Positions 1 to 33,172 are shown, counted from the stretch's first letter. The stretch: 64,000 nucleotides of DNA from Deinococcales bacterium (GCA_025352125.1 JANXTZ010000044.1:148345-212344); one strand, 5' to 3'. Notes: generated by a model not told the origin, from the letters alone. Made by a program: numbers and translations.

Positions 1-751
1 AGGGACTGTCCTGGGTGATCGGATGCACCACCGTCCAGGACAAATTGAAAAACGCAACTTTTTGCCGCTCGAGTTTTAACTGGTAAAACTTGCGAACTTG
101 AGCACCCTTGATGTTCTCAAACCAGGAAAGTGTGACCAGGGCTTCGATGTCAAGCACTTCGCTTTGTAAACCATTCACCACCCGAATCATCCAACCCATG
201 CCATTTTGGTACGGCGCAAACAACATATTCTTGGAAAACAAAATTCGGGTCATCGGTTTGGAGAATCTGGCAAACAACAATCCTGTCGCCAATGCCACAG
301 CCAACAAACCCACAAAAGCCTCGATGGTCGCCACAATGTTCGCCGCAAGGCTGGCAGGCGCAACATGTCCATAACCAATCGTGGACAGCGTTTGGACACT
401 AAAGAAAAAACCGCGCCAAAACCGATTCTCGAGCACCAGATTTGAACCCGCTTGAAGTGCATCTGCCCCACAAAACCAGTACAGACTTGCGAAGAACAGG
501 TTGATCAAAATAAACGTGGCTGCCAAAAAACCAAAAAACAAGGCAGGCTGCAAGGTGATCAACCCGTAAAAAATATTCTGACTCGAGAGCCACCCCAAGC
601 CCAAACGCCTGGTGTTAAATGAACCGTCCGAATTGACGAACCTGGCAGTGCTGCGTTCTGCCGCCACCCGCCCAATGCCAAGGTCTTCGTTGGTATCGCT
701 GGCTCGAGATTCTGATTCGGTGATCTTGCTCGAGGAATTGGTGTCTGTCAT
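1..751 (-). CDS. Inward-rectifier-type K+ channel (KirBac-like); N-terminus complete, C-terminus runs off the window start
   Basis: Own translation of the minus strand from ATG (751-749): MTDTNSSSKITESE... It has two TM helices flanking a pore helix with selectivity filter TIGYG, then a beta-rich cytoplasmic domain (LFAPYQNGMGWMIRVVNGLQSEVLDIEALV...). No stop codon occurs before position 1, so it is absent from the supplied ORF track. Confidence 0.85.
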   Translation of the reverse strand, partial: MTDTNSSSKITESESRASDTNEDLGIGRVAAERSTARFVNSDGSFNTRRLGLGWLSSQNIFYGLITLQPALFFGFLAATFILINLFFASLYWFCGADALQAGSNLVLENRFWRGFFFSVQTLSTIGYGHVAPASLAANIVATIEAFVGLLAVALATGLLFARFSKPMTRILFSKNMLFAPYQNGMGWMIRVVNGLQSEVLDIEALVTLSWFENIKGAQVRKFYQLKLERQKVAFFNLSWTVVHPITQDSP

Positions 752-856
752 GGGTTCAGAATACGACAACCATCTAGTTCAAACTCGAGCGACATTCCAA
801 TTCAAAAATTCAGCTCCAGATTATCCCGTGACAGATTTGAGATTTGCCCAACGAGA

Positions 857-1366
857 ATGAGCACACATGTTATGCTCGAGATGCTTTACAAATTAATTGC
901 TTCAAGAGGAGCACGCATGGCAGATGTTATCATCCAGGTATCCAAGGACGGCAAGCACCTGGTCACGGGCGACGGCAGAACCATCTACCGTTTTGTCCCC
1001 ATGAAATCCGACCCCGAGCATTTGTACATCCCCTGGGGCGGAAATTTTCCACCGTACCTGCTCGAGTTTATTGCCACCTGGAGTCCGTTGATTGGTGTTC
1101 CCAAAGCTGGTAACGGTGTGAAACAAGAAAACCTGAGCGACTTTGACCGCGATGGTCCGCCCGACGAGGGTTTAACGCAAATCAGTTACCGTGGTTGGTG
1201 GTTGTATTTTTACCCAACCGCCGCACCAGATTCGATCCATGAGGTTCCAAAATTGTTCCAACTGGTGTCACCAAGCATTGCCCCGCAACGGGTAGGAATG
1301 TCAATTGTTGGTGCAGATGATCCAGATGACGTTGGCGGTCCACCTTACATTTTTGGTGGTCCTTGA
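857..1366 (+). CDS. Hypothetical protein (possible alternative start at 917, MADVIIQ...)
   Basis: 169-aa ORF with normal composition and no recognisable motif. It overlaps the STAND gene tail-to-tail by 22 nt. Confidence 0.45.
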   Translation: MSTHVMLEMLYKLIASRGARMADVIIQVSKDGKHLVTGDGRTIYRFVPMKSDPEHLYIPWGGNFPPYLLEFIATWSPLIGVPKAGNGVKQENLSDFDRDGPPDEGLTQISYRGWWLYFYPTAAPDSIHEVPKLFQLVSPSIAPQRVGMSIVGADDPDDVGGPPYIFGGP

Positions 1367-4128
1367 TTTTCATAAATATTTGACAATAGGATTTCACTTA
1401 CTAAATCTTGAATTAATTGTTCAGAAACAAATTCTCTAGTCGCTTTTTCTGAAAAAGAGAGATTTAATTGATTTTGAATCATTTGAATCTCTCTCTTTTG
1501 AGAAACTTGAAGTAAAGGATAACTTAAAATAGCTTTTATTATTTTTGCTGATTTCTCAGTATCTCCCACTAAGCCTTTTAGGTATGCAAAAAAAATTAAC
1601 GTATCTATTTTTTGAGTAATATGAGGTAAGTTTTTTGCTTCAAACAAAGATTTAAATAAGTATTTTTCTGCAAACAAAAATTGTTTACGTTTAATTTCAA
1701 TACAACCTAGCATTAGATAAGCACCGCAAGTAACTTCAAAAATTGATTGATCTTTTAATACATTAAGTGTAAGATTTGCAAAATACTCTGACTCTTCATA
1801 GTCTTGTAAATAGTATAAGCCTATGCTCAAATTATGATAATAATAAGGTATCGCCATTTTTTGTAAGCTTGTTTTTGATATCAAATCTAAACCAATCTTT
1901 AATGATTCACATATTTTTTTGTAATTTGGATTTAGTAAAACAGAGTATAGAATGCCTGAAAAATTTAAACGAGCTAAAATTTCCGTACTATAATCTTTTA
2001 CTCTTGACGAATTTAATATTATTTCACTATAATAAGTTATAGCCTTAGTAGTATTTCCTCTTTCGGATTCTAGAATCGCTAAATTGCTTAAACAAGTTAT
2101 TTCTCGAGCTTTATCATCATGTTTTCTAATTAACATAAGCGCGTTTTCGTAAAATTGAATTGCTAATGTATACTCAGCTACCGTTGCTGCGATAGAACCA
2201 AGTATATTTAATGCTTTAGAGAGCGTAATTTCATTTAAACTTCCAACTTTGGATGCCAAACTTTTAGCTTGTATTGCATTGTTTCGAGCTTCTGTGATTT
2301 TACCCAATCTAAATTGTAACCAAGCTGCACCGACTAACATGGGAGCCAATGCAAGTGATGGTGCACCGTAATTCTCGAGTGCGGTAATTGTGGTTTCAAA
2401 CCAACTCAAGCCTTCGCCAAATCTTGCATTTTGATCGAAAAACACCACAATGTCTTGAACTTTCTCGAGCCTTGCAGCTTGATTGTTTTGAATCGCGTGC
2501 GACCATGCGGCGCGAATGTTCTCGAGTTCGGTTTCGATGTTGCGCATGGCGTTCGCGGCTTCAGACCCACGAATTTTGGCGGTGTCTCGCTCGAGTCTGG
2601 TCAGGTAATAATCTTGGTGGCGTTCAAAACTGCCCGCAAAATCGGGAAGCTCGAGCAGTTTTTCAAGCGTGAATTGGTACAGAAGCGGGTGAATGCCGAA
2701 ACGATTTGTCGCGTCGCGTTGCACCAAACTTTTGTCGCTCAGGTTTGCCAAGGTCTGCAATTTGGTGGCGTTGATTGCCCCAACGGCTTCTCGGGTTGCG
2801 CCACCCCTGAACACGGCAAGTTGCGCCAGGGCGTGTTGCTCGAGGGTGGAGAGTATCTTCCAGGAATGCTCGAACACGGCGCGGATGCTGCGGTGACGTT
2901 CGGGCGTGTCGCGCAATGTGTTGTCGAGCAAGTCAAGGTTATCCGCCAAATCTTGACGGAGTTCGGATAGGCTCAAGGCGCGTAAAAGGGGCACGGCAAG
3001 TTCGATGGCAAGCGGAAAACCGTGCACGAGTTTGCAAATCTCGAGCGCATCGGCACGGTCTTCAAAAGTTTGGATTTGCCTTCCAATTCTGTTCGCACGG
3101 TCTATAAACAACTCGAGCGCGGCATCTTGATCGGACCCTGCACCCAGACCCTCGAGTGGCGTGATCCATTCGCCGTGCAAATTCAGGCGTTCGCGGGAGG
3201 TCACGATCAGGCGCAAATTCGGGCAACGCTCGAGCAGCAGGGTCAGGTGAAAACCGTGTTCGGTCAGGTGCTCGAAGTTGTCGAGCACCAACAAGATTTG
3301 ACGTTGCCCAATGCCTTCCATGATTTGCTCAAAGACTGGCGCGTCGGGTTTTAAATTGATTTTAAAAACTTGCACGATTCGTGACAGCAGCGCTTCCAAG
3401 TCATTGATCGCCTCGAGCATGACCATCAAGACACCATCTTTAAAAAGCTCGAATTGCAAACTTTGCCGTGCCGTCTCGAGCGCCAGACGGGTTTTGCCCA
3501 CACCGCCAGGTCCAACCAGCGTCACCAGTCTGGCTTCCTCTTGCAGCAACTCGAGCACGTGCGCAGACTCTCGGGCGCGTCCAACAAAACTGGTCAAGCT
3601 CTGCGAGAGGTTGTTCGGAATGACCAACGGCTTTAAAGTCTCGAGGTTGAGGCTTTCGAGTTTGGCAATGCGCTGCAACCAAGCTGACTCGAGGTTTTCA
3701 AAGCCAATGATGTTCCGTGCCGCCTCGAGATGCTGACTTACCGCAAGCTGCTCAACCGCCCGTTCTGCCAGCGTCAAGTGCGCCTCTATAATGCCTCGAG
3801 CCAAATACGCTCGCATGGTTTCAATCCACTCGAGCAACTCTGGGTGAACCTCGGGAATGTCCAGATTCTCGAGGAACGGCGCAGTATAAAGTTCGACCGC
3901 CCGTTCCAAATTTTGATGCTCGAGCGCAAACAAAACCTCTGCTGCATCGCAATCCACAGCCGCTTTCAACCTCGAGCCAGAACCCCCAAACGCCGTTGGC
4001 ACAATTTGTCGCACACGGTTGATCGTGCTGCGCAAACTGCCCGCCGCGTCACTGGCATTCGGGAAGAACAACTCGCGCAAATGATCGCGGGTTTGCTCAC
4101 CCTCGAGCGCCACATACGCCAGCAACAC
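1345..4128 (-). CDS. STAND NTPase regulator: SARP-type wHTH/BTAD + NB-ARC P-loop ATPase + C-terminal TPR array
   Basis: The N-terminus LVLLAYVALEGEQTRDHLRELFFP...LRSTINRVRQ and ELYTAPFLENL match the SARP/BTAD pattern. Walker A is LVGPGGVGKTRLA. The long C-terminal region is helical TPR-like repeats. The frame stays open upstream to ~4236 and encodes LKVLGNLHLEPFGFAQAKP, but with no ATG/GTG/TTG, so the true start is uncertain. Confidence 0.8.
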   Translation of the reverse strand: MLLAYVALEGEQTRDHLRELFFPNASDAAGSLRSTINRVRQIVPTAFGGSGSRLKAAVDCDAAEVLFALEHQNLERAVELYTAPFLENLDIPEVHPELLEWIETMRAYLARGIIEAHLTLAERAVEQLAVSQHLEAARNIIGFENLESAWLQRIAKLESLNLETLKPLVIPNNLSQSLTSFVGRARESAHVLELLQEEARLVTLVGPGGVGKTRLALETARQSLQFELFKDGVLMVMLEAINDLEALLSRIVQVFKINLKPDAPVFEQIMEGIGQRQILLVLDNFEHLTEHGFHLTLLLERCPNLRLIVTSRERLNLHGEWITPLEGLGAGSDQDAALELFIDRANRIGRQIQTFEDRADALEICKLVHGFPLAIELAVPLLRALSLSELRQDLADNLDLLDNTLRDTPERHRSIRAVFEHSWKILSTLEQHALAQLAVFRGGATREAVGAINATKLQTLANLSDKSLVQRDATNRFGIHPLLYQFTLEKLLELPDFAGSFERHQDYYLTRLERDTAKIRGSEAANAMRNIETELENIRAAWSHAIQNNQAARLEKVQDIVVFFDQNARFGEGLSWFETTITALENYGAPSLALAPMLVGAAWLQFRLGKITEARNNAIQAKSLASKVGSLNEITLSKALNILGSIAATVAEYTLAIQFYENALMLIRKHDDKAREITCLSNLAILESERGNTTKAITYYSEIILNSSRVKDYSTEILARLNFSGILYSVLLNPNYKKICESLKIGLDLISKTSLQKMAIPYYYHNLSIGLYYLQDYEESEYFANLTLNVLKDQSIFEVTCGAYLMLGCIEIKRKQFLFAEKYLFKSLFEAKNLPHITQKIDTLIFFAYLKGLVGDTEKSAKIIKAILSYPLLQVSQKREIQMIQNQLNLSFSEKATREFVSEQLIQDLVSEILLSNIYENQGPPKM

Positions 4129-4408
4129 CAGCGGCTTGGCTTGAGCAAACCCAAACGGTTCGAGGTGTAAATTCCCCAGTACCTTTAAGCGCGGTAAAGT
4201 ATTGTTTTCTCGAGAAGGCGTTTTAATGCACTCAGTTTACCTCGAGATGAACTGAATGTTGTCAACTGCGTGAAGAATTAAGAAATTCGAGCTTTGAAAT
4301 TGCTGGGGATTCTGGCATTCCAAAACAAATTGGATTTTTGGTCACTCGAGCCTCGCTTGTCGCCACACAAAACAGAACCAAAGCTGGGGATGAGAGGGAG
4401 CAGGTGGT

Positions 4409-4443
4409 GATTATTTCACTCGAGCATCTCGAGTGAAATAATC
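4409..4443. promoter_or_regulatory. Perfect 16-bp inverted repeat with 3-nt loop (GATTATTTCACTCGAG cat CTCGAGTGAAATAATC), 15 nt upstream of the HAD start codon
   Basis: Read directly. The arms are exact reverse complements and each contains a CTCGAG. It lies in the divergent STAND/HAD intergenic region. Operator or 5-prime UTR hairpin; function unknown. Confidence 0.4.
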
Positions 4444-4457
4444 GGTACACTGAACAC

Positions 4458-5231
4458 GTGATTAAAGCCGTTTTATTCGACCTCGATGAAACCCTGATTC
4501 TTGACGAAGCCGTGTCGCTTCACGCGTTTCAAATGGTGGCGCTCAGTGTGACCCGAGATGCAAGCAAAGCCGCACAACTTGCGCACGCGGCGGAACAACA
4601 TGCAAAACGATTGTGGCAAACCCTGCCAGTTCCCGCACTCGAGTACGCCGCGCAAATTGGTCACAGTGCGCTCGAGGGCTTGTGGGCGGTGTACGACCCG
4701 AAGCTCGAGTTTGAGGTTTTACTCGAGGCGCACATTGTTGATTACCGTTTTGAAACCTGGAATGCGGCGCTTGTCGATTGCGGTTTGAAGGCGGATGCTC
4801 GAGGGTTAGAAAAATTGTGGCGAGGTTTGCGTGCCAGGTATCCGCTTTATCCAGGCGCGGACGAGTTGCTGGTATATTTAAAACCAAATTACAAACTTGG
4901 CATCGTCACGAACGGCGTGGCTTGTTTGCAACGCCAGAAATGGCATGGTTGCGGACTCGAGCCGTGGTTTGATGCGGTGGCGATTTCTGGAGAGCTTGGT
5001 ATTGGTAAACCCAATCCAGCGATTTTTGAATGGATTGCAGGTGAGTTAAAAGTGCCGCTCGAGACTTGCGTCGTGGTTGGTGACAATGCTGACCGCGATG
5101 TTCAGGGCGGCATCAACGCAGGAATCAAAACCGTCTGGATTGATCGCGGCTTCAAACCGCGCACGGCAATTGCCACGCTCGAGGTCAAACAATTGCTCGA
5201 GATGCTGCCCTGGCTCGAGGCGCAAACCTGA
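4458..5231 (+). CDS. HAD-superfamily hydrolase (subfamily IA-like)
   Basis: GTG start. Motif I is VLFDLDETL. Also IVTNG, GKPNP and the motif IV region VVGDNADRDVQG. Confidence 0.85.
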   Translation: MIKAVLFDLDETLILDEAVSLHAFQMVALSVTRDASKAAQLAHAAEQHAKRLWQTLPVPALEYAAQIGHSALEGLWAVYDPKLEFEVLLEAHIVDYRFETWNAALVDCGLKADARGLEKLWRGLRARYPLYPGADELLVYLKPNYKLGIVTNGVACLQRQKWHGCGLEPWFDAVAISGELGIGKPNPAIFEWIAGELKVPLETCVVVGDNADRDVQGGINAGIKTVWIDRGFKPRTAIATLEVKQLLEMLPWLEAQT

Positions 5232-5311
5232 CTTTTGTCATGTGCTCCCTCTGACAGTCTGCACTGTTTTAAATATGCGTCAACCCCGAGAATGACCACA
5301 GGAGGAACACA

Positions 5312-6205
5312 ATGTCTTTGGCGGTGGAACTCGAGAATGCAAGTAAATCTTTTGGCAGTGTTCAGGCACTTCGTAACGTGTCGCTCGAAGTTGAGGCGGG
5401 TGAGGTGGTCGCGTTTCTGGGACCGAACGGCGCAGGCAAAACCACCGCCATCAGCATCATGCTTGGTCTGCGTTCACCGACTTCGGGTCATGCCAGAATT
5501 TTTGGGCAGAACCCCAGAGAACCCAAAAACCGTGCGCGTATTGGCGTGATGCTGCAAGAATCTGGCGTGCCAGGATTGCTGAAGGTGCGCGAGTTGATTC
5601 GGTTGTTCACCCAGTTTTACAATGCGCCCTTGCTGGTTTCCAAAGTGCTCGAGATGGCGAACTTGACCGAGAAAAAAGACGCGATAGCCTCCACGCTTTC
5701 GGGTGGTCAAAAGCAACGACTTTATTTTGCATTGGCAATTTGTGGCAACCCAGATGTTTTGTTTCTGGACGAACCCAGCGTGGCGCTCGATGTCGAATCG
5801 CGTCGCGCGTTCTGGCAAGAAATTTCTGGCTTTGCGAAAACTGGTAAAACTGTGATTCTGACCACGCATTATCTCGAGGAAGCCGACGCGCTGGCGAACC
5901 GAATCATTGTCATCAACAAAGGCGAGATCGTGGCGCAGGGCAGTCCCGCGCAAATCAAATCGCGGGTTGGTGGCAAGAACGTTTCGTTCAAACTCGAGGT
6001 TGGAAATGCGGATGCGCTCGAGAATTTACCGAATGTACAGCGTTTCAGTAAGACTGGTGAAAGCATCAATCTGTACACTTTAGAGCCTGAAAAAGTCTTG
6101 CAAGAAGTTTTTGCATCTGGTTTGCAAATTTCAAACCTCAGCGTTGCAGGTGCGGGACTCGAGGAAGCCTTCATGGAAATCACCGAACAGGGAGCAAAAC
6201 AATGA
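5312..6205 (+). CDS. ABC transporter ATP-binding protein (ABC-2/drug-exporter type)
   Basis: Walker A GPNGAGKTT, signature LSGGQKQR, Walker B LFLDEP. Confidence 0.9.
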   Translation: MSLAVELENASKSFGSVQALRNVSLEVEAGEVVAFLGPNGAGKTTAISIMLGLRSPTSGHARIFGQNPREPKNRARIGVMLQESGVPGLLKVRELIRLFTQFYNAPLLVSKVLEMANLTEKKDAIASTLSGGQKQRLYFALAICGNPDVLFLDEPSVALDVESRRAFWQEISGFAKTGKTVILTTHYLEEADALANRIIVINKGEIVAQGSPAQIKSRVGGKNVSFKLEVGNADALENLPNVQRFSKTGESINLYTLEPEKVLQEVFASGLQISNLSVAGAGLEEAFMEITEQGAKQ

Positions 6206-7005
6206 CTGGTCTGAATCCTGAAAATGCGAATGCTCGAGCCTACAATCCGTTCAAAGGTTTGGGCTTTCAGTTGTACTGCGAACTGATTCGTTTATTGCGC
6301 AACCCAGGTTTTTTGATTCCGACGGTTTTGTTTCCGATCATGTTTTTTACGCTGTTTGGTTTGCCCAACGCCAAAGAAAATATTGGCAATGGCGTGACGG
6401 TTGGCGCGTACCTGCTGGCATCGTATGGGACTTACGGGATGCTTTCGGCAGCCTTGTTTGGCTTTGGGGTTGGCATTGCCGCCGAGCGTGGTCTGGGTTG
6501 GAACCGTTTGACTCGGGCAACGCCGATGCACCCGATCATGTACTTCAGCGCCAAAATTTTGACCGCCCTGTTGTCTGGGCTGGTGACACTGACCGCATTG
6601 TTCGCCTTCGGAATTCTGGTTGGACACATTTCGCTCCCGCTCGAGACTTGGCTGTTGCTGACCGCCCGAATCATGCTCGGCATGATGCCGTTTGTGGCGC
6701 TTGGCTTGTTCATCGGTTATCTTGGCAATCCGCAAAGTGCCACGCCGATCACTCAACTTATTTTCTTGCCGATGTCGTTTGCTTCAGGCATTTTCTTGCC
6801 AATCAAAAATTTGCCGCAGTTTGTCCAAGACCTCGCGCCGTACCTGCCCGCGTATCACAGCGGTCAACTGGCATGGCATACTCTGGGTGCTGGCGACAGC
6901 GCTAGCCTCGACTCGCACATCATCTGGAATCTTGGCTTCACGGTGCTGTTCCTGGCATTGGCTGTCTGGGCATATAAACGCGACGAAGCCAAGCAATACG
7001 GTTAA
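6202..7005 (+). CDS. ABC-2 type transporter permease
   Basis: ATGA start/stop overlap with the ATPase gene. About six predicted TM helices. Confidence 0.8.
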   Translation: MTGLNPENANARAYNPFKGLGFQLYCELIRLLRNPGFLIPTVLFPIMFFTLFGLPNAKENIGNGVTVGAYLLASYGTYGMLSAALFGFGVGIAAERGLGWNRLTRATPMHPIMYFSAKILTALLSGLVTLTALFAFGILVGHISLPLETWLLLTARIMLGMMPFVALGLFIGYLGNPQSATPITQLIFLPMSFASGIFLPIKNLPQFVQDLAPYLPAYHSGQLAWHTLGAGDSASLDSHIIWNLGFTVLFLALAVWAYKRDEAKQYG

Positions 7006-7038
7006 AGTGTTCCTCGAGCTTTTCAGATTTGAGGTTGT

Positions 7039-8175
7039 ATGACATACCGACGCAATTGGACCCGCTGGTACCCGCTGATCTGGTTGGTCTTCCTCGGGTT
7101 GCCAATATCGGCGCTCTTACAAACACAACGCAGCCCGCTCGAGTACGTCTACGGATTTTCATTGATCGCTGCGTTTGTAGGGTTTTTTCTGTGGTCATTT
7201 TTCTGGAATCACAACGACGAGCATAAACTCGAGGCAGCTTACCGAATTCCCAGTTTGATCGGTATGGTTTTCAGTTACGTCGTGTTCGGTTTGATGTGGA
7301 AGTTGCTCAATGGTGATGGTTCGGCATTCGTTGTCTACGCGGGTTCGTTTGCAGGTTTTCAAAAAAGCAACCGCCCCTTGATTGTCAGTGTTGTTATTTC
7401 GTTTGCTCTGGCGGTTGCTTTTGCGTTTTTCGATGCCAATTGGTTTGTCTGGACGATTCCAATTTCGACCGTGATTGCTGCGCTGGGCAATCACAGTGCC
7501 TATCTGCAAATACAAACGTTTCGCAGATTGCAAAACTCGCAGGCGCAAGTGGCAAGCATTGCCAAGGTTGCCGAACGCGAACGGATTGCCCGAGATTTGC
7601 ACGACCTTCTAGGGCATACGCTTTCGGTGATCGTCTTAAAGTCAGAACTTGCCAGCAAACTTGCCGAAAAAAATCCTGCCAAAGCCATCGCCGAAATCCG
7701 CGATGTCGAACGCATCAGCCGCGAAGCCCTGTCAGAGGTGCGCAGCGCCGTGCGCGGCTACCGCTCGAGTGGACTCGAAGCCGAACTGGCGAGCATTTCC
7801 CTGGCGCTTGAGGCAGCACAAATCAAGCTCGTGCCATTCGTGATGCCTTTAGAGCTTGAATGGGCAACCGAGCAGACCTTGGCGTTTATTTTGCGCGAGG
7901 CGATCACGAATGTGGTGCGGCACAGCAACGCCAGAACCTGTTTTGTTTCCCTCGAGCAATGCGGTCAATTTGTGCTGCTTGAGGTTTACGATGACGCGCA
8001 ACTCGAGCTTAAACCAGGCAACGGCATTGCTGGAATGCGAGAACGGGTGGCAGCCCTGGCAGGAAAATTCTCGCTTGTCACTGTGATTGGCAAGCGGGGA
8101 ATCAGCGTTAAACTTGCCCTTCACAGTTCCACCGATTCCAGTCTCAATCCTGCGCAACTCGAGGTACTTCCATGA
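7039..8175 (+). CDS. Sensor histidine kinase, HisKA_3 (DesK/NarX/LiaS-like)
   Basis: N-terminal TM helices. H-box ERERIARDLHDLLGHTLS. C-terminal HATPase region (NVVRHSNA...GNGIAGMRERV). Confidence 0.85.
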   Translation: MTYRRNWTRWYPLIWLVFLGLPISALLQTQRSPLEYVYGFSLIAAFVGFFLWSFFWNHNDEHKLEAAYRIPSLIGMVFSYVVFGLMWKLLNGDGSAFVVYAGSFAGFQKSNRPLIVSVVISFALAVAFAFFDANWFVWTIPISTVIAALGNHSAYLQIQTFRRLQNSQAQVASIAKVAERERIARDLHDLLGHTLSVIVLKSELASKLAEKNPAKAIAEIRDVERISREALSEVRSAVRGYRSSGLEAELASISLALEAAQIKLVPFVMPLELEWATEQTLAFILREAITNVVRHSNARTCFVSLEQCGQFVLLEVYDDAQLELKPGNGIAGMRERVAALAGKFSLVTVIGKRGISVKLALHSSTDSSLNPAQLEVLP

Positions 8176-8218
8176 TCGAATATTTTAAATTTTTAACAAT
8201 ACTCAAAGGTATACGCCC

Positions 8219-8821
8219 TTGATTCGTGTGATCCTCGCCGAAGACCAAGCCCTGGTTCGCGGCGCACTTTCTGCACTGCTCGAGCTTGAGGACGACATTG
8301 AAGTGATCTTCCAAGCCCAGAACGGTCTTGAAGCGCTCGAACAAACCCAAAGACTTCAACCCGATGTGCTCCTGACCGATATTGAAATGCCCAAAATGAC
8401 GGGCTTGGAACTCGCGCTCGAGGTCAAAAAACAAAACCTCAAAACCAAAGTGGTGATCGTCACCACCTTCGCTCGAGCAGGGTACTTGCGGCGTGCACTC
8501 GAGGCTGGGGCGACAGGATACTTGTTAAAGGATGCACCCGCCGACGACCTTGCCGACGCCGTGCGCCGCGTTCATGCGGGCGCTCGAGCGATAGACCCGA
8601 CGCTGGCGCTTGAAGCCTGGAGCGAAGCCGACCCACTGACCGACCGTGAACGCCAGGTGCTGCGGTTTGCAAGTGAGGGTCAGAGCAGTCTCGAGATTGC
8701 TGGCAGCCTGAAACTTTCTGAAGGCACAATCCGAAATTATTTATCCGAAGCGATTGCCAAACTTGGTGCGAACAACCGCGTTGAAGCGGCGCGGATTGCC
8801 AGAGAAAAAGGTTGGTTGTAG
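8219..8821 (+). CDS. Response regulator, NarL/LuxR family
   Basis: REC domain (VILAEDQ...LLTDIEMPKMTG) plus LuxR HTH (LTDRERQVLRFASEGQSSLEIAGSLKLSEGTIRNYLSEA). Confidence 0.9.
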   Translation: MIRVILAEDQALVRGALSALLELEDDIEVIFQAQNGLEALEQTQRLQPDVLLTDIEMPKMTGLELALEVKKQNLKTKVVIVTTFARAGYLRRALEAGATGYLLKDAPADDLADAVRRVHAGARAIDPTLALEAWSEADPLTDRERQVLRFASEGQSSLEIAGSLKLSEGTIRNYLSEAIAKLGANNRVEAARIAREKGWL

Positions 8822-8875
8822 GGTGCGCCCCGTGCACTAAGGACGCGTGAATGACGGTGCACAAGGCGCATCCTA
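8819..8875. other. Nested hairpin immediately after the response-regulator stop codon
   Basis: Outer stem TAGGGTGCGCC / GGCGCATCCTA (11 bp, one G-T pair). Inner stem GTGCAC / GTGCAC. The 19-nt loop TAAGGACGCGTGAATGACG loosely resembles the loop of the 37-nt repeat family. Confidence 0.35.
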
Positions 8876-8950
8876 CACAATTGTTGTGGTTTCTCGAGAG
8901 GTGGTATTTCCTGATTGTGAAACTTGAATACCACCGAATACTTTTCCATT

Positions 8951-9142
8951 GCGCCTATAGCTCAATGGTTAGAGCACCAATCTTCTTGACCATAAAACGT
9001 ACCTGTCTTGATCTTGATCCCAAACATGCACCTGATGGGCGGGATCGCTGACGGGCAAGGTCGCTTGTTGACCATAAAACGCACCTGACGGGCATGGTCG
9101 CTTCTAAATTGGCGCATACGGGTTCGAGTCCCGTTAGGCACA
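8951..9142 (+). tRNA. tRNA-Arg(TCT) gene interrupted by a 119-nt insert in the anticodon loop (possible pseudogene or intron-bearing gene)
   Basis: Hand fold after removing 8984-9102. Acceptor GCGCCTA/TAGGCAC has one C2-A71 mismatch. D arm GCTC-AATGGTTA-GAGC. Anticodon stem CCAAT/ATTGG with loop CT|TCTAA. Variable loop CGCAT. T arm ACGGG-TTCGAGT-CCCGT. Discriminator A. No encoded CCA. Confidence 0.7.
8984..9102 (+). repeat. Three copies of a ~37-nt hairpin repeat, one nested inside another, forming the tRNA insert
   Basis: Copy a is 8984-9005 plus 9050-9065 and is split by copy b, 9012-9049 (stem GATCCC/GGGATC). Copy c is 9066-9102 (stem GACCAT/ATGGTC). The consensus is TCTTG-stem-AAAACGCACCTGACGGGC-stem-CGCT. 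Confidence 0.8.
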
Positions 9143-22578: not shown

Positions 22579-23079
22579 ATGGCAATAACACCCGAGCAAA
22601 TGATTTTAGATGCCGCAAACACAAACGTTCGCCTCGAGTTTGTGCGTGGCATTCCGCTTTGGGAAGCCAGCCCAGTCGCGGGGCATCAACTCGAGATTTT
22701 CCGAATTCAGAACAGTATTAAGAGAAGTGATGACTCTCAAGCTTGTGCCTGTACCCACCTTTCAGACACGCTTTTTAAGTTTGGCGAGGGTTCACTCAAA
22801 CGCCCCGACATTGCGATTCTGTGCCAAGAATTAAAACCCGAACAACTGTACAGCGCCCTCGAGATCATCCCCGAAGCTGTGGTCGAAGTGATTTCCGAAG
22901 GTTACGAATACAAAGACCTCGAGATTGCGCCCCAGTTTTACCTGGGTTTGGGTGTGAAAGACGTTTTGATTCTCGAGCCACGGCTTAAAGTTGTGTATCA
23001 CCACCGAAAAGACAGCAAAACCCGACTCGAGTCACCTGTAAAATTGAGGCTCGAGTGTGGTTATGAAATTGAGGTTTAA
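22579..23079 (+). CDS. Uma2 family endonuclease (DUF820)
   Basis: EFVRGIPLWEASP..GHQ, PDIAIL, EVISEG...D..K...Y...GVKDVLILEP form the PD-(D/E)xK-like Uma2 pattern. Confidence 0.8.
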   Translation: MAITPEQMILDAANTNVRLEFVRGIPLWEASPVAGHQLEIFRIQNSIKRSDDSQACACTHLSDTLFKFGEGSLKRPDIAILCQELKPEQLYSALEIIPEAVVEVISEGYEYKDLEIAPQFYLGLGVKDVLILEPRLKVVYHHRKDSKTRLESPVKLRLECGYEIEV

Positions 23080-23510
23080 AATTTAATCAAGTGGCGCAAT
23101 CGTAAAAAATTTAAGAATTCGGCTGGAGTCAAAATAACAGCTTCTCCAAGCGTTTCCAATTCCAAAACACCAATGTTATCGCTGCTGACCAAAGCATTGG
23201 CTAGACCTTGTTCAACAATGGCGATTAAGAAATTGTCCTTTGGGTCTTTTGAGTCTCTCGAGTTTTGGTTGCCCCGCACGTACAAACCGTCAGAATGAAG
23301 TTGATTGACCAGCGCACCAATCCGATTGCGTTTCAAACGCTTTTTCAAACGTGGGTACGCGCAAACCAATTTGATTTCCTCGAGTAATTCAAGGTTGTAC
23401 AACACCACAAAAGCCCGATGTTCCCAAGCAAGAACAATTTGTCCACACAAACCATTGGGGTGAAGCATTGCACTGATAAACACGTTCGTATCCAGAACAA
23501 CTTTTAACAC
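23076..23510 (-). CDS. PIN-domain toxin (type II TA system)
   Basis: MLKVVLDTNVFISAML... N-terminus and later acidic residues are typical of the PIN family. It overlaps the upstream antitoxin gene by 1 nt. Confidence 0.8.
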   Translation of the reverse strand: MLKVVLDTNVFISAMLHPNGLCGQIVLAWEHRAFVVLYNLELLEEIKLVCAYPRLKKRLKRNRIGALVNQLHSDGLYVRGNQNSRDSKDPKDNFLIAIVEQGLANALVSSDNIGVLELETLGEAVILTPAEFLNFLRLRHLIKF

Positions 23511-23755
23511 TAGCCTCTAGCATCCCGCACAGCCCTTTGAGCCTCGAGTGCCAGCATCAACCCATCTTCTTCGGACAAATCATGATTAACAGCGTCATCC
23601 TCAAGAATTGCCCGAAAATTATCGGCTCGACGCTCGAGTTCGACGAGCGCTTGTTCAATCACATCGGCTTGCGAGGTTTTTAAACTGCTCTGAAGCTTTT
23701 CGATGCGTTTCAGTGCATCTTTTGACAATGCGATTTCCATAGTCAGATTGTACAT
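23510..23755 (-). CDS. Antitoxin partner of the PIN toxin (small helical/RHH-like protein)
   Basis: It lies immediately upstream of and overlaps the PIN gene. The start is uncertain (ATG at 23755 or 23740; the track gives GTG at 23782 inside repeat copy B). Confidence 0.6.
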   Translation of the reverse strand: MYNLTMEIALSKDALKRIEKLQSSLKTSQADVIEQALVELERRADNFRAILEDDAVNHDLSEEDGLMLALEAQRAVRDARG

Positions 23756-23772
23756 GATAAGCTCGGGTTTTG

Positions 23773-23826
23773 CTCGAGTCACCCGTAAAATTGAAACTCG
23801 AGTGCGGTTGTGAAATTGAGGTTTGA
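23773..23826 (+). repeat. Direct repeat copy B of the Uma2 3-prime end
   Basis: 48 of 54 nt are identical to 23026-23079 by hand alignment. It still encodes ..LESPVKLKLECGCEIEV*. Confidence 0.85.
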
Positions 23827-24097: not shown

Positions 24098-24451
24098 ATG
24101 ATTGAATTTATTAAAGTTGTTTTAATTATTGTATTTTTTTACACTTTTCTTATTTTAACTTTTGGGGTAATCATTAGATTAGTAGTATCGTACAGTCTTT
24201 TAAGTGATTGCATTCAAATAAAACTGTATGGGGATTCTTACCGAAAAATTTACTATGAAAATATCCAAGAAATTACGTATTGGAATCGAGAAACTGCACT
24301 AAAAAACTTTTGGTGTACGTTTGTTTTTAGGGAAAGAAATTCTGACCTTTTCCGATTTTTCAATCCCGTTGTTGTAGTTATGAATGGTAGTACATTTAAA
24401 GTTTTAATCACACCTCCAAATCCAAAAGAATTTGTCGAGAAAGTGAAATGA
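24098..24451 (+). CDS. Hypothetical membrane protein encoded by AT-rich DNA
   Basis: 117-aa ORF with an N-terminal hydrophobic helix pair. The DNA is strongly AT-rich and has no CTCGAG between 24002 and 24522. Confidence 0.5.
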   Translation: MIEFIKVVLIIVFFYTFLILTFGVIIRLVVSYSLLSDCIQIKLYGDSYRKIYYENIQEITYWNRETALKNFWCTFVFRERNSDLFRFFNPVVVVMNGSTFKVLITPPNPKEFVEKVK

Positions 24452-24545: not shown

Positions 24546-25787
24546 TCAATTGACAGTCTTGACCCGTTTGTTCACGTAATCCATCAACACATACTGCCCA
24601 ACATTGTGCGGCGTGGTGAAATACGCTTTTCCATGCGTCATCTCGGCGACTTTTTTCACGAACGCAATCAAATCGGGGTCCCTTGCCAGCATGAACGTGT
24701 TGATCTGAATGCCTGCACGTCTGCATTGCGCGACTTCACGAATGGTTTCACCCAGCACAAACGGGTCTAAACCCCAAGCGTTTTTGTAAATTCTGCCGTC
24801 GGGCAAGGTTAACGCCGAGGGTTTACCGTCGGTAATCATGATGATTTGCTTCATGTCTTTGTTCTCGCGTTTTAACAGTTGTTGCGCGAGTCTCAAGCCG
24901 CCTGCGGTGTTGGTGTGGTACGGACCAACTTGGCATTGCGCCAGCTTACCCAAGGGTATCTCTTCGGCAGAATCGTGAAACAACACAAACTTGATCGTGT
25001 CCCCCGCGTATTGCGTGCGAATCATGTGCGCCAGCGCCAACGCCACTTGCTTGGCAGGGGTGAACCTGTCCTCGCCGTACAAGATCATGCTGTGCGAGCA
25101 GTCCAGCATCACAATGGTTGCGGCGCTGCTTTTGTACTCGGCTTGCCGCACCACCAGATCGGATTCCTCGAGGTTCTCGAGTCCTTTTGCCATCGTGTTG
25201 GTCAGGGTTGCGCCAATGTCGAGGTTGAGGGTGTCACCAAATTCGTAATCTTTCAGGTCGCCCGTCATCTCGACACCCGAGGCGTATTCTTTGGTGTCGT
25301 GTCGTCCCATGCTCGACTTGCCCAGACCACCGAGCAGGTCGCGCAAGGTTTTGTAACCCAGGAAATCGATGCTTTTGTCGGTCAGTTGAAATTGCGCCTG
25401 CCCTGGGTCGCCCGCGCCGCCTTGACCGCTGGCTTCGCTGGGTTGCGGGTCGTCAACGCGAATGTAACCCTCGTCTTTCATGCGTTGAATCATCTTGGAA
25501 ATTTCCTGGGAAAGGCGTGTTTTGTCAAAATCTTTGGTACTTTGCGCCTCTTTGAGCATGTCTTCAGGAATTAGGTCGCGTTCCATTAAAGCCTGCAAGA
25601 TCGCCTCGCGCAACTCGTCCATGCTCTGCCCAGAGTTGGGGTCTGGGTCGTAAGGATTGTTGAACGCCGACCCAATGATTGAATCGCGGATCATTTCCAT
25701 GATGCTCGAGGTGTCAATGTCGTCTAAGGTGGATTCGTATTTGGAATAACGGGTCGAGCGGGTTGTGGTTTGCATAAAAGACCTCAC
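24546..25787 (-). CDS. VWA-domain protein (partner of the upstream AAA+ ATPase)
   Basis: MIDAS motif VMLDCSHSM, later ITDGKPS. Confidence 0.8.
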
Positions 25788-26254
25788 TCTCGAGCTTCTG
25801 GCAGTCCATCTGAGATTTCGGTGTTGATTTTTTGTAAGAATTCGGCTACGGATTGGGTTTTTAATTCGCCTCGACGGTATGCAGCACTGGTTTCCTTGGC
25901 TTCAGCGATCATTGAATTACGTCTTCGTTTGCTGCATTCACGTTTTAGATTTTCGAGAACATCTATTTGATCGTCAAGGGATAACAACTCAAAATTGATA
26001 AATATTTTATCGAGGTCTGTTAATGATTTTAAGTTATTGCTCGTTCCCAATTGCTGCAATGCTTGCAAGGTTTCTTGTAAGTTACGGGTTGCGAATTTTC
26101 CAGACTGCATTGCTTTTGTTGCGGCGTTGCTTTCTTGAACGAATTCCTCATGACGCTTGTTTTTGAGAATTCGATTTGAAATCTCGAGTTGTTCGTGTTT
26201 TGGTAAGTCTTGAATCACGTCCATTATTTGCTCGAGTGTCATCTGAACCTCCAA
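25784..26254 (-). CDS. Hypothetical helical protein between the ATPase and VWA genes
   Basis: 156-aa ORF with lower GC than its neighbours and a 4-nt overlap with the VWA start. The N-terminus [24 protein letters not shown] resembles addiction-module-component motifs. Confidence 0.5.
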
Positions 26255-32166: not shown

Positions 32167-32693
32167 GCGAAATCTCCTCGAGTTGGGGCGCGATGAAATA
32201 AATATTTTCGCATTGTAATTGGTTTTTGACTGTTCGGATTGGCATGGCTGTATTTGATGCCGTCATCCTCAAAAAAACCTTGACGCTTGTAAAACTCGAG
32301 CAAGCCAGGCTCGTCGGTTCGCACCGCAAGCCGCAATTCTTCAATCCCGCTCGAGGTCGCCCGAATCATAATTTCATTCATCAGCCAAGTCGAAAGTCCA
32401 CGTCCACGGTAAGCGGGCAGAATGCCGAGCCGACCAATCTCCCAAGCAATCGCGCCGTGATACGTGACCTCGGGCGTGCTTTCACCCATCACAGGGTAAT
32501 AACGCACGCTGCCCACCGCAATACCCTCGAGACACATGATTATCGCGCTGCCTTCACGCAAACTTTTTTCCACCGCCTCAACCGATTCAGTATGTCCGCT
32601 TGAGTTTGCGGGTTTCCCAACCCAGCATTCACGCGTGAGGCGTGCAATCAAAGCCGCATCCTCGAGTGTGGCGGTATAAAGTTCTGGAATCAT
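32163..32693 (-). CDS. GNAT family N-acetyltransferase
   Basis: ILPAYRGRGLSTWLMNE acetyl-CoA motif. 4-nt overlaps with both neighbours. Confidence 0.8.
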   Translation of the reverse strand: MIPELYTATLEDAALIARLTRECWVGKPANSSGHTESVEAVEKSLREGSAIIMCLEGIAVGSVRYYPVMGESTPEVTYHGAIAWEIGRLGILPAYRGRGLSTWLMNEIMIRATSSGIEELRLAVRTDEPGLLEFYKRQGFFEDDGIKYSHANPNSQKPITMRKYLFHRAPTRGDFA

Positions 32694-33172
32694 GATGGTT
32701 CTTTCAAAAGTTCTGGAATATTTTCAGGCTCGAGCCAGCGAACGCATTTTTGTTTTTCTCGAGCGTACAAAATTTCTCGAGTGGCGCTTTCACCCACATA
32801 ACCGTCCACGTTCACCACCAGAATTTCGTCTGCCAGATCAATTTTTTGAAAATGTAGTTTCTCTAGTTTTTGTTTGAGTTCCTCGAGTTCGGATTGGGTT
32901 TTAGCTGCAAAAATTGCATTTTCGGTTTCTCGGTTTGAAGCGATTGAAAGCACAATTTTCCCAGCCAGAGTTTCCTCGAGATTCAGTTTTGAGAACACGT
33001 CATAAAACCGTGTTGAACCGCACAAGCACACGATGGTTGGACGCTCGAGATTTAAGAAGAATAGCGGAATCACCATGCTAAACTCGGCAGTATTTTGCTC
33101 GAATTCATCGGTTTCTTGGTCAGTCCAAGTTCCAGCCAGATGAGTCAAATCACGTTTTTTCTCGAGCATCAA
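32690..33172 (-). CDS. Hypothetical protein (possibly nucleoside 2-deoxyribosyltransferase-like fold)
   Basis: IVCLCGSTRF...KIDLADEILVVNVDGYVGESATREILYA pattern. The assignment is tentative. Confidence 0.5.
   Translation of the reverse strand: MMLEKKRDLTHLAGTWTDQETDEFEQNTAEFSMVIPLFFLNLERPTIVCLCGSTRFYDVFSKLNLEETLAGKIVLSIASNRETENAIFAAKTQSELEELKQKLEKLHFQKIDLADEILVVNVDGYVGESATREILYAREKQKCVRWLEPENIPELLKEPS

Follow-up and report, generated by a model that had tools for sequence, protein, structure and literature searches.

The 64,000-nucleotide stretch of Deinococcales bacterium DNA analysed here (GCA_025352125.1, JANXTZ010000044.1:148345-212344; hereafter the window) carries, on its minus strand, a STAND NTPase gene whose last third differs sharply from the remainder in base composition. 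This AT-rich, rare-codon segment is probably a long-lived and hypervariable specificity cassette within the tetratricopeptide repeat (TPR) sensor of a SARP-like STAND regulator found in a clade of Deinococcales. It encodes roughly the final 310 residues of this array in a resident STAND (NB-ARC) ATPase, and would be long-standing in the orthologous gene across an uncultured Deinococcales clade, with a conserved position and fold, purifying selection within each class and deep divergence between classes. Occasional exchange between lineages would take place by homologous recombination anchored in the N-terminal part of the gene and in the convergent neighbouring gene, and a local force would keep the cassette AT-rich over more than one synonymous substitution per site. 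The cassette may set ligand specificity, and balancing or diversifying selection may keep the different classes of the C-terminal third in existence.

The composition break within the open reading frame (ORF) is pronounced. The G+C content (GC) is 28.4% at positions 1367-2340 and 54.2% in the rest of the ORF (2341-4128), while other segments of equal length in the window average 52.3% (sd 3.5, minimum 37.3), giving a z value of -6.9 for the block. An earlier note on this DNA had estimated about 30% GC for the block by eye and had described a single ORF of 927 codons at 1345..4128; both descriptions agree with the measurements, the frame running through the block on the minus strand without a stop. 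At the 5' end of the block the change is gradual, GC at third codon positions (GC3) dropping over about 2430-2290, whereas at the 3' end it is abrupt and coincides exactly with the stop codon of the convergent gene 857..1366. At the composition of the block, 324 open codons are expected by chance with a probability of about 1e-13 (in the window alone), and the block 1367-2340 is therefore coding. From the N-terminal part to the C-terminal third of the protein, the fraction of FYMINK residues rises from 0.19 to 0.36 and that of GARP residues falls from 0.27 to 0.15. The non-ORF DNA of the window has a GC of 0.479, far above that of the block. In composition and codon usage the segment is as atypical as would be expected of an acquired islet, with a GC of 0.284 and an index similar to the codon adaptation index (CAI-like index) of 0.49.

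A break of this kind could arise from an assembly chimera of the DNA of two organisms, and the window probably comes from a metagenome-assembled genome (MAG). Such an origin can hardly be entertained here, since two in-frame junctions would be needed and the same pattern is present in ten independent assemblies. Moreover, the DNA of window positions 1-9097 is identical (0 mismatches) in the Logan assembly of SRR23617199, which also contains the exact protein, though this assembly was perhaps built from the same reads.

The orthologues of the gene have the same break. Eleven orthologous proteins (P0002-P0012) were found, with 58-74% identity and 96-100% coverage; the orthologue contigs L002-L005 are MAGs of uncultured Deinococcales, obtained from metagenomes that include those of glacier-fed streams. 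The GC comparison covers the ten genes with DNA (window, L002, L003, L081, L082, L083, L084, L086, L087 and L088). In all ten, GC drops at an equal alignment position, from 0.45-0.64 to 0.22-0.39 per 150 nucleotides (nt). Analysis by codon position, which covered seven of the genes, gives a fall of GC3 from 0.53-0.64 to 0.17-0.32, of GC at first positions from 0.61-0.64 to 0.36-0.52 and of GC at second positions from 0.37-0.39 to 0.28-0.32. This fall at all codon positions suggests an effect at the nucleotide level that has dragged the amino-acid composition along. The gene order HAD hydrolase (minus strand), STAND gene (plus), small convergent gene (minus) and K+ channel (plus) is kept wherever the flank suffices, and this synteny was seen in L001, L081-L084, L087 and L088. 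The partial C-terminal third available from L004 has a tail that by eye resembles that of P0004. A scan of metagenome contigs with the orthologue alignment A1 gave one irrelevant match of 31% identity (L085) and no population-scale set of orthologues.

The presence of the AT-rich end in all ten genes implies that it is neither private to this genome nor recent. This bears directly on the proposal, made in the earlier note, that a foreign AT-rich TPR module was recently inserted into, or exchanged with, the 3' end of a resident gene in this genome. The strength of the composition break, the foreign-looking codon usage and a lineage-specific tail extending into the neighbouring gene are what such an event would leave, but the break is common to the syntenic locus in independent Deinococcales metagenomes, and a block missing from the orthologous locus of relatives, as an acquired islet should be, was found in none of the ten. 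Recent insertion is thus extremely improbable. The same note had named two observations that would speak against it. The first, an AT-rich C-terminus in orthologues together with congruent phylogenies of the two halves of the gene, was seen in its first part, whereas the histories of the two halves are incongruent (see below). The second, AT-rich TPR modules in all paralogues, is rejected, as the TPR ends of five paralogous STAND-TPR genes from the same or related MAGs (L020, L022, L036, L040 and L051) are normal in composition, at 0.49-0.65 GC.

Searches for a donor also fail to support a recent foreign origin. An exhaustive phmmer search of 1.84 billion representative proteins with the C-terminal third returned an orthologue, P0002, as its sole full-length match (52% identity, 3e-77), the other matches being generic TPR repeats at query residues of about 28-122. 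IMG/VR viral contigs scanned with the alignment of the C-terminal third contained no relative. Repeats in the region 1100-2700 are limited to two-copy matches of 12-26 nt, with no terminal or boundary repeats; neither terminal inverted repeats nor a target duplication was found at the block, no tRNA lies within the window, and an Rfam scan of positions 1-5000 at E <= 0.1 gave no match. The boundary signatures of an acquired islet are absent: the neighbouring gene is intact, and its C-terminus and stop codon are conserved in other loci. Signs of a diversity-generating retroelement (DGR) were looked for in the local region only, where there is no long repeat pair (1100-2700) and no reverse transcriptase among the neighbours in L001.

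The 3' junction itself differs among lineages. In L002, which has the closest allele, the STAND stop codon falls a few bases before that of the convergent gene, whereas the window tail (..NIYENQGPPKM, then stop) extends past that point by about 8-10 codons and so overlaps the 3' end of the neighbour. The end of the ORF (..ENQGPPKM) had been placed inside the convergent ORF by the earlier note, and the overlap with 857..1366 indeed measures 22 nt. The stop had been regarded there as one found by chance, a view that holds for the tail, which is a read-through relative to L002, but not for the junction as the scar of an insertion. Between the STAND stop and the small gene, about 300-370 nt are present in L003 (about 8772-9139) and L082 (about 6760-7064), the latter gap carrying a called ORF of 43 amino acids (aa). 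No such spacer separates the two genes in the window, L002, L081, L083 and L084, where they overlap or lie end to end. The spacers of L003 and L082 suggest that insertions and deletions occur readily at the 3' junction of the cassette.

The hexamer CTCGAG was another element in the argument for recency. It is present at 436 sites in 64 kb, versus 11 expected from shuffled sequences (about 6.8 per kb), and is found in non-ORF DNA as well as in each of the three reading frames. As a consequence of this hyper-abundance in the genome, the AT-rich block looks CTCGAG-poor. The counts of the earlier note were accurate (about 27 sites claimed and exactly 27 counted in 2341-4440, a lone site at 2103 within 1367-2340, and none in 1067-2102), and no CTCGAG-free gap in the window exceeds that at 1061-2103 (1042 nt, versus a mean of 146 nt). 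If CTCGAG accumulated with residence time, a single site would indeed favour a recent arrival, but this clock does not run. The C-terminal parts of seven orthologues contain 1-4 sites each, 17 in total against 0.53 expected from base composition (32 times), and the corresponding N-terminal parts contain 155 against 3.3 (46 times). In addition, the lone site of the window block occupies the same alignment column in six of the seven orthologues, in both allele classes. Among the other long ORFs of the window, 193 of 247 Leu-Glu pairs (78%) are spelled CTCGAG, as are 20 of 24 in the N-terminal part of the STAND gene. The C-terminal third has one Leu-Glu pair and six synonymous opportunities for CTCGAG, one of which is used. 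The block is therefore poor in CTCGAG because it is AT-rich and poor in Leu-Glu. The process that enriches for CTCGAG acted on the block too, and the scarcity of the motif dates nothing.

The protein has the properties of a STAND NTPase with a C-terminal repeat sensor. The NB-ARC family of Pfam matches residues 194-384 with 28.6 bits (cut-off 23.5), which places the protein among NB-ARC-type STAND proteins, and the Walker A (GPGGVGKT) and Walker B (LLVLDNFE) motifs are present and invariant in alignment A1. The repeat sensor is recognised by TPR_12 (Pfam) at residues 638-702 (46 bits, cut-off 30.1), and AlphaFold predicts a regular array of about 18 helices at residues of about 570-890 (pLDDT 75-95). 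The prediction is poor over residues 1-560 (pLDDT mostly <50), and nothing was concluded there on the N-terminus. The best Foldseek matches are the LGN/Pins TPR, consensus TPR superhelices, the STAND protein PH0952 and Rap/NprR; the orthologue profile searched against the Protein Data Bank (PDB) matches LGN/Pins-type TPR, the TPR sensor of PH0952 and, over the ATPase, AfsR (8k60, E = 8e-4). Since the TPR superhelix begins in DNA of normal GC, the composition break lies inside the array, after the first one or two TPR repeats, and not at a domain border.

Read by eye, the N-terminus resembles an OmpR-type winged helix followed by a BTAD domain, as in SARP proteins. The BTAD match is weak (14.7 bits, E = 0.041, below the cut-off of 22.1), and Trans_reg_C gave no match in the family search of the STAND protein. 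The frame is open upstream of the GTG at 4128 and encodes an N-terminus kept in orthologues (Table 1). This upstream part, 4129-4227 on the minus strand, contains no start codon (ATG, GTG or TTG) and is immediately preceded by an in-frame stop. From its sequence, the gene would either use a non-canonical start or encode a protein without the first part of the putative winged helix. The starts of P0007 and P0008 are called like that of the window gene.

Large STAND regulators of the SARP/AfsR type share the order of SARP-like N-terminus, NB-ARC and TPR, and the match to AfsR over the ATPase extends this likeness. The window protein differs from them in its BTAD match, in its score of 39 bits against a cut-off of 1430 for the AfsR equivalog NF053617 (NCBIfam), of which it is not a member, and in its host, which belongs to the Deinococcales and is not an actinomycete. 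We are not aware of any AT-rich hypervariable sensor third in AfsR. Archaeal and bacterial STAND proteins with a TPR sensor (PH0952, PDB 6mfv) and MalT-type regulators likewise have a P-loop core followed by a TPR superhelix as sensor; the likeness is remote, at 15% identity and with a low full-length TM-score, and we know of no allelic classes or composition break in proteins of this type.

The C-terminal third is a hypervariable core lying between a conserved N-terminal part and a conserved neighbouring gene. Among 12 proteins, identity is 72-90% in the N-terminal part and 28-63% in the C-terminal third. The C-terminal thirds form two classes, one comprising the window and P0002 (52% identical to each other) and the other all remaining proteins, with about 31% identity between classes. 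By the NG86 method, synonymous divergence (dS) of the N-terminal part is 0.43-1.10, with a ratio of nonsynonymous to synonymous divergence (omega) of 0.12-0.20, in line with a dS of 0.3-1.3 in four flanking genes. The C-terminal third gives dS values of 1.0-2.3 in most pairs, which are saturated. Conversely, between L081 and L083 dS is only 0.39 in the C-terminal third, while the flanks differ by 0.5-1.1. The genealogy of the core is thus decoupled from that of its surroundings, and the allele classes of the C-terminal third are older than the species splits.

Exchange of the core between lineages is most apparent in L083. In a sliding comparison this gene resembles L082 over codon columns 30-500 (84-96% identity) and L081 over columns 690-930 (84-97%), a clear mosaic that shows at least one inter-lineage exchange of the C-terminal third (L083/P0010). 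The idea of a C-terminal sensor swap in the earlier note thus survives as regards exchange, the two histories being incongruent and the exchange lying within the clade, but not as regards a recent foreign donor. At columns of about 510-600, L081 and L082 are 84-94% identical and L083 is 73-82% identical to both; this patch suggests that the N-terminal part is also recombinant in places. P0005 (L081) and P0004 (L088), with C-terminal thirds 60% identical, both come from JGI sample 3300081913, so that distinct alleles or lineages co-occur in one community.

Despite this divergence the cassette is functional. All C-terminal modules align over their full length with the same boundaries and 47 invariant positions, and in every one of the ten orthologues about 320 codons are read without a stop. 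Fast protein divergence, an omega of 0.17-0.67, which exceeds that of the N-terminal part in most pairs, and the enrichment in FYMINK residues might suggest that the C-terminal third is decaying under relaxed constraint, with AT-biased mutation alone determining its composition. Decay is nevertheless very improbable given the open frame, the TPR superhelix predicted with high confidence and the much higher GC of the non-ORF DNA of the window. Moreover, omega is 0.21 within an allele class, which indicates purifying selection on the C-terminal third.

Codon usage in the C-terminal third is far from that of other genes. TTA accounts for 56% of Leu codons versus 7% elsewhere, CTA for 16% versus 1%, AGA for 56% versus 7% of Arg codons and ATA for 39% versus 5% of Ile codons. 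The CAI-like index is 0.49 in the C-terminal third, 0.74 in the N-terminal part and 0.73 +/- 0.04 in other genes. Third positions of the block show no skew (A3 approximately equal to T3, and G3 to C3), and this lack of strand asymmetry led to the rejection of transcription-linked, strand-biased mutation. Polarised third-position substitutions give the C-terminal third an equilibrium GC3 of 0.37 (bootstrap 0.28-0.46) versus a current value of 0.26, from the single triple close enough for polarisation (L081, L086 and L083). In four triples of the N-terminal part, the equilibrium is 0.48-0.57 and the current value 0.59-0.64. The local substitution regime of the C-terminal third favours AT more than does that of the N-terminal part.

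If the ancestor of the clade had acquired an AT-rich module once, long ago, and ordinary vertical descent with slow amelioration had followed, a break at one place in all orthologues would be accounted for without any maintenance of AT-richness. This history would also fit the excess of AT-to-GC changes, the current GC3 below the inferred equilibrium in the C-terminal triple and the range of GC3 among lineages, from 0.17 to 0.32. Such a history is unlikely, however, as the proportion of synonymous differences (pS) in the C-terminal third is 0.55-0.72 (saturated) in most pairs and GC3 is still no higher than 0.32 everywhere. By that time a regime such as that of the N-terminal part, with an equilibrium of about 0.53, should have erased most of the difference, and the local equilibrium of 0.37 lies below that of the N-terminal part. 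Vertical descent is, furthermore, incompatible with a genealogy of the C-terminal third decoupled from the flanks in both directions.

Alternatively, import might have been repeated, each lineage having a fairly recent, unameliorated copy from an AT-rich pool that escaped sampling (low-GC bacteria, plasmids or phages, for example). The dS of the C-terminal third above that of the flanks, the extremely alien codon usage, the hint of amelioration and the occurrence of exchange would all be explained in this way. This account is distinctly unlikely, because no pool was seen (the protein search gave only an orthologue and IMG/VR nothing) and because modules imported separately would have to share their full length, boundaries and invariant positions. 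In addition, the roughly 32-fold enrichment of CTCGAG inside the modules, with one site in both classes, points to long residence in CTCGAG-rich genomes, and the sole traceable exchange is between two members of the clade.

A long-standing cassette whose low GC is maintained locally therefore remains the preferred explanation, synonymous saturation together with a GC3 of at most 0.32 in every lineage suggesting such maintenance. The GC of 47.9% in non-ORF DNA indicates that unconstrained DNA here does not reach 27%. Candidate maintainers would be selection on rare codons, mRNA, DNA or translation, or exclusion from a GC-raising process, for which biased gene conversion among similar sequences is a candidate. 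It is possible, but doubtful, that AT-richness and the load of rare codons (TTA, ATA, AGA and CTA) are themselves actively selected in the clade. They may act as a translational gate on the SARP-like regulator, by analogy with bldA/TTA control in Streptomyces, or as a device that keeps the cassette poor in CTCGAG and hence inherited and exchanged as one unit. If so, one gene with two equilibrium GC values under one mutation supply would provide a test bed for the determinants of bacterial GC.

Several observations weigh against the cassette interpretation. No ligand and no co-varying partner gene were found, the small convergent neighbour being 82-88% identical across both classes of the C-terminal third. 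The NG86 dS values above 1 are saturated and hence rough. The N-terminal parts of P0004 and P0005 differ too (only 87% identity) and, judged by sequence, their hosts may be different species, in which case the pair would not represent polymorphism in one population. In the C-terminal triple, AT-to-GC changes at third positions outnumber GC-to-AT changes by 49 to 30, in a small sample and with a parsimony bias in AT-rich DNA that inflates the signal of upward drift; a current GC3 of 0.26 below an equilibrium of 0.37 hints at slow amelioration and an AT-rich origin. Finally, L007 and L070, STAND-TPR genes of about 36% identity from other Deinococcales MAGs, show a mild drop in GC, to 0.33-0.41, in their last third and, as a check of synteny showed, do not lie at this locus. 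The drop in GC may therefore not be wholly specific to this orthologue, and paralogues may have a weaker form of it.

The closest analogues are the polymorphic specificity regions of several bacterial systems, including the staphylococcal agr groups (with a variable agrB/D/C sensor half), the comQXP pherotypes of Bacillus, the target-recognition domains of hsdS and the O-antigen clusters, the last having a GC persistently below that of the genome. In these systems a hypervariable core lies in or near conserved sequence and forms deep classes, its genealogy is decoupled from the species and the flanks, and exchange occurs via the conserved flanks. The present case resembles them in these respects. 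It differs in that variation affects at least the distal two-thirds of the TPR array of a cytoplasmic STAND ATPase, and in that no partner gene co-varies with it.

Immune and conflict proteins of the NLR/STAND type, such as fungal NLRs, bacterial Avs and the NTP-dependent conflict systems (Kaur et al. 2020, PMC7159879), are also among the closest analogues. In them too a STAND ATPase bears a C-terminal repeat sensor that diversifies rapidly. In contrast, the window protein has no defence-type effector domain that would place it among Avs or other defence proteins, and its N-terminus is transcription-factor-like. PADLOC matched no defence system and gave only its generic 'TPR' model (1e-7) with sub-threshold noise. 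Neither high internal repeat identity nor a DGR-like repeat pair nearby was found. The genes around the STAND gene encode a HAD hydrolase, an ABC transporter, a two-component system and a K+ channel.

An abrupt change of composition within one gene and the absence of a signature motif here mimic fresh horizontal transfer, although both are old and clade-wide. A bacterial STAND regulator thereby joins the genes with deep, exchangeable specificity classes. With GC3 values of 0.6 and 0.2 side by side in one ORF and in ten lineages, the gene is also a convenient small system in which to ask why hypervariable loci remain AT-rich, in genomes that have in addition a hyper-abundant palindrome comparable to HIP1. 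The coordinates of the features are given in Table 1.

Table 1. Features of the STAND locus, in window coordinates.
Feature	Position	Strand	Basis or remark
STAND NTPase gene, 927 codons from first GTG	1345..4128	-	SARP-like N-terminus, NB-ARC ATPase and C-terminal TPR array
NB-ARC / P-loop ATPase core, residues 194-384	2977..3549	-	Pfam and invariant motifs
TPR-like superhelix, about 18 helices, residues about 550-921	1366..2481	-	AlphaFold, Foldseek and PDB profile matches
AT-rich hypervariable rare-codon block	1367..2300	-	Final part (about 310 residues) of the TPR sensor; GC 0.27-0.28, GC3 0.17
Transition zone	2290..2430	-	GC3 from about 0.6 to below 0.2; nucleotide identity to orthologues from about 90% to about 64%
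Lone CTCGAG of the block	2103..2108	.	Read gCT CGA Gaa (K-A-R-E)
Lineage-specific C-terminal tail (..SNIYENQGPPKM, then stop)	1345..1380	-	Frame shifted relative to L002 (..VKNT, then stop)
In-frame upstream extension (..NNTLPRLKVLGNLHLEPFGFAQAKPL)	4129..4227	-	Matches orthologue N-termini
Convergent conserved gene, 169 aa	857..1366	+	Weak Lipoprotein_15 match; C-terminus GGP..GGP, stop conserved in orthologous loci
Divergent HAD-family hydrolase gene	4458..5231	+	Conserved 5' flank of the locus

HIP1 is the hyper-abundant palindrome GCGATCGC of cyanobacteria (PMC5861425). CTCGAG is likewise a short hyper-abundant palindrome (40 times over expectation), conserved in position in orthologues and present in every reading frame; it is not the HIP1 motif, has another length and occurs in another phylum. 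The abundance of CTCGAG was considered in the window (1-64000), L001-L005 and L081-L084. It amounts to 6.4-10.7 sites per kb at the related Deinococcales MAG loci versus 0.5-3 at Trueperaceae loci, and many sites are conserved in position among orthologues with a dS of 0.5-1.1. In the window and orthologues, the N-terminal part of the STAND protein contains 24-26 Leu-Glu pairs per about 600 codons versus about 9 expected (about 2.6 times), and the C-terminal third 1-4 per about 300 codons versus about 3, the expectations being arithmetic from the Leu and Glu content. This DNA motif thus seems, to judge from these sequences, to shape the protein sequence.

Low GC is also found elsewhere in the window. 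A second AT-rich islet at 24098-24451 (GC 0.27-0.33) encodes a hydrophobic ORF of 117 aa and adjoins a pair that by eye consists of a PIN-like toxin and a small antitoxin-like protein (23076-23782). A relationship to the STAND block was considered and rejected, the islet being a separate small ORF; it looks like a small accessory insertion. Apart from the C-terminal third of the STAND gene, the lowest GC3 values of the window (0.39-0.40) are those of the ORFs 25784-26254 and 32690-33172.

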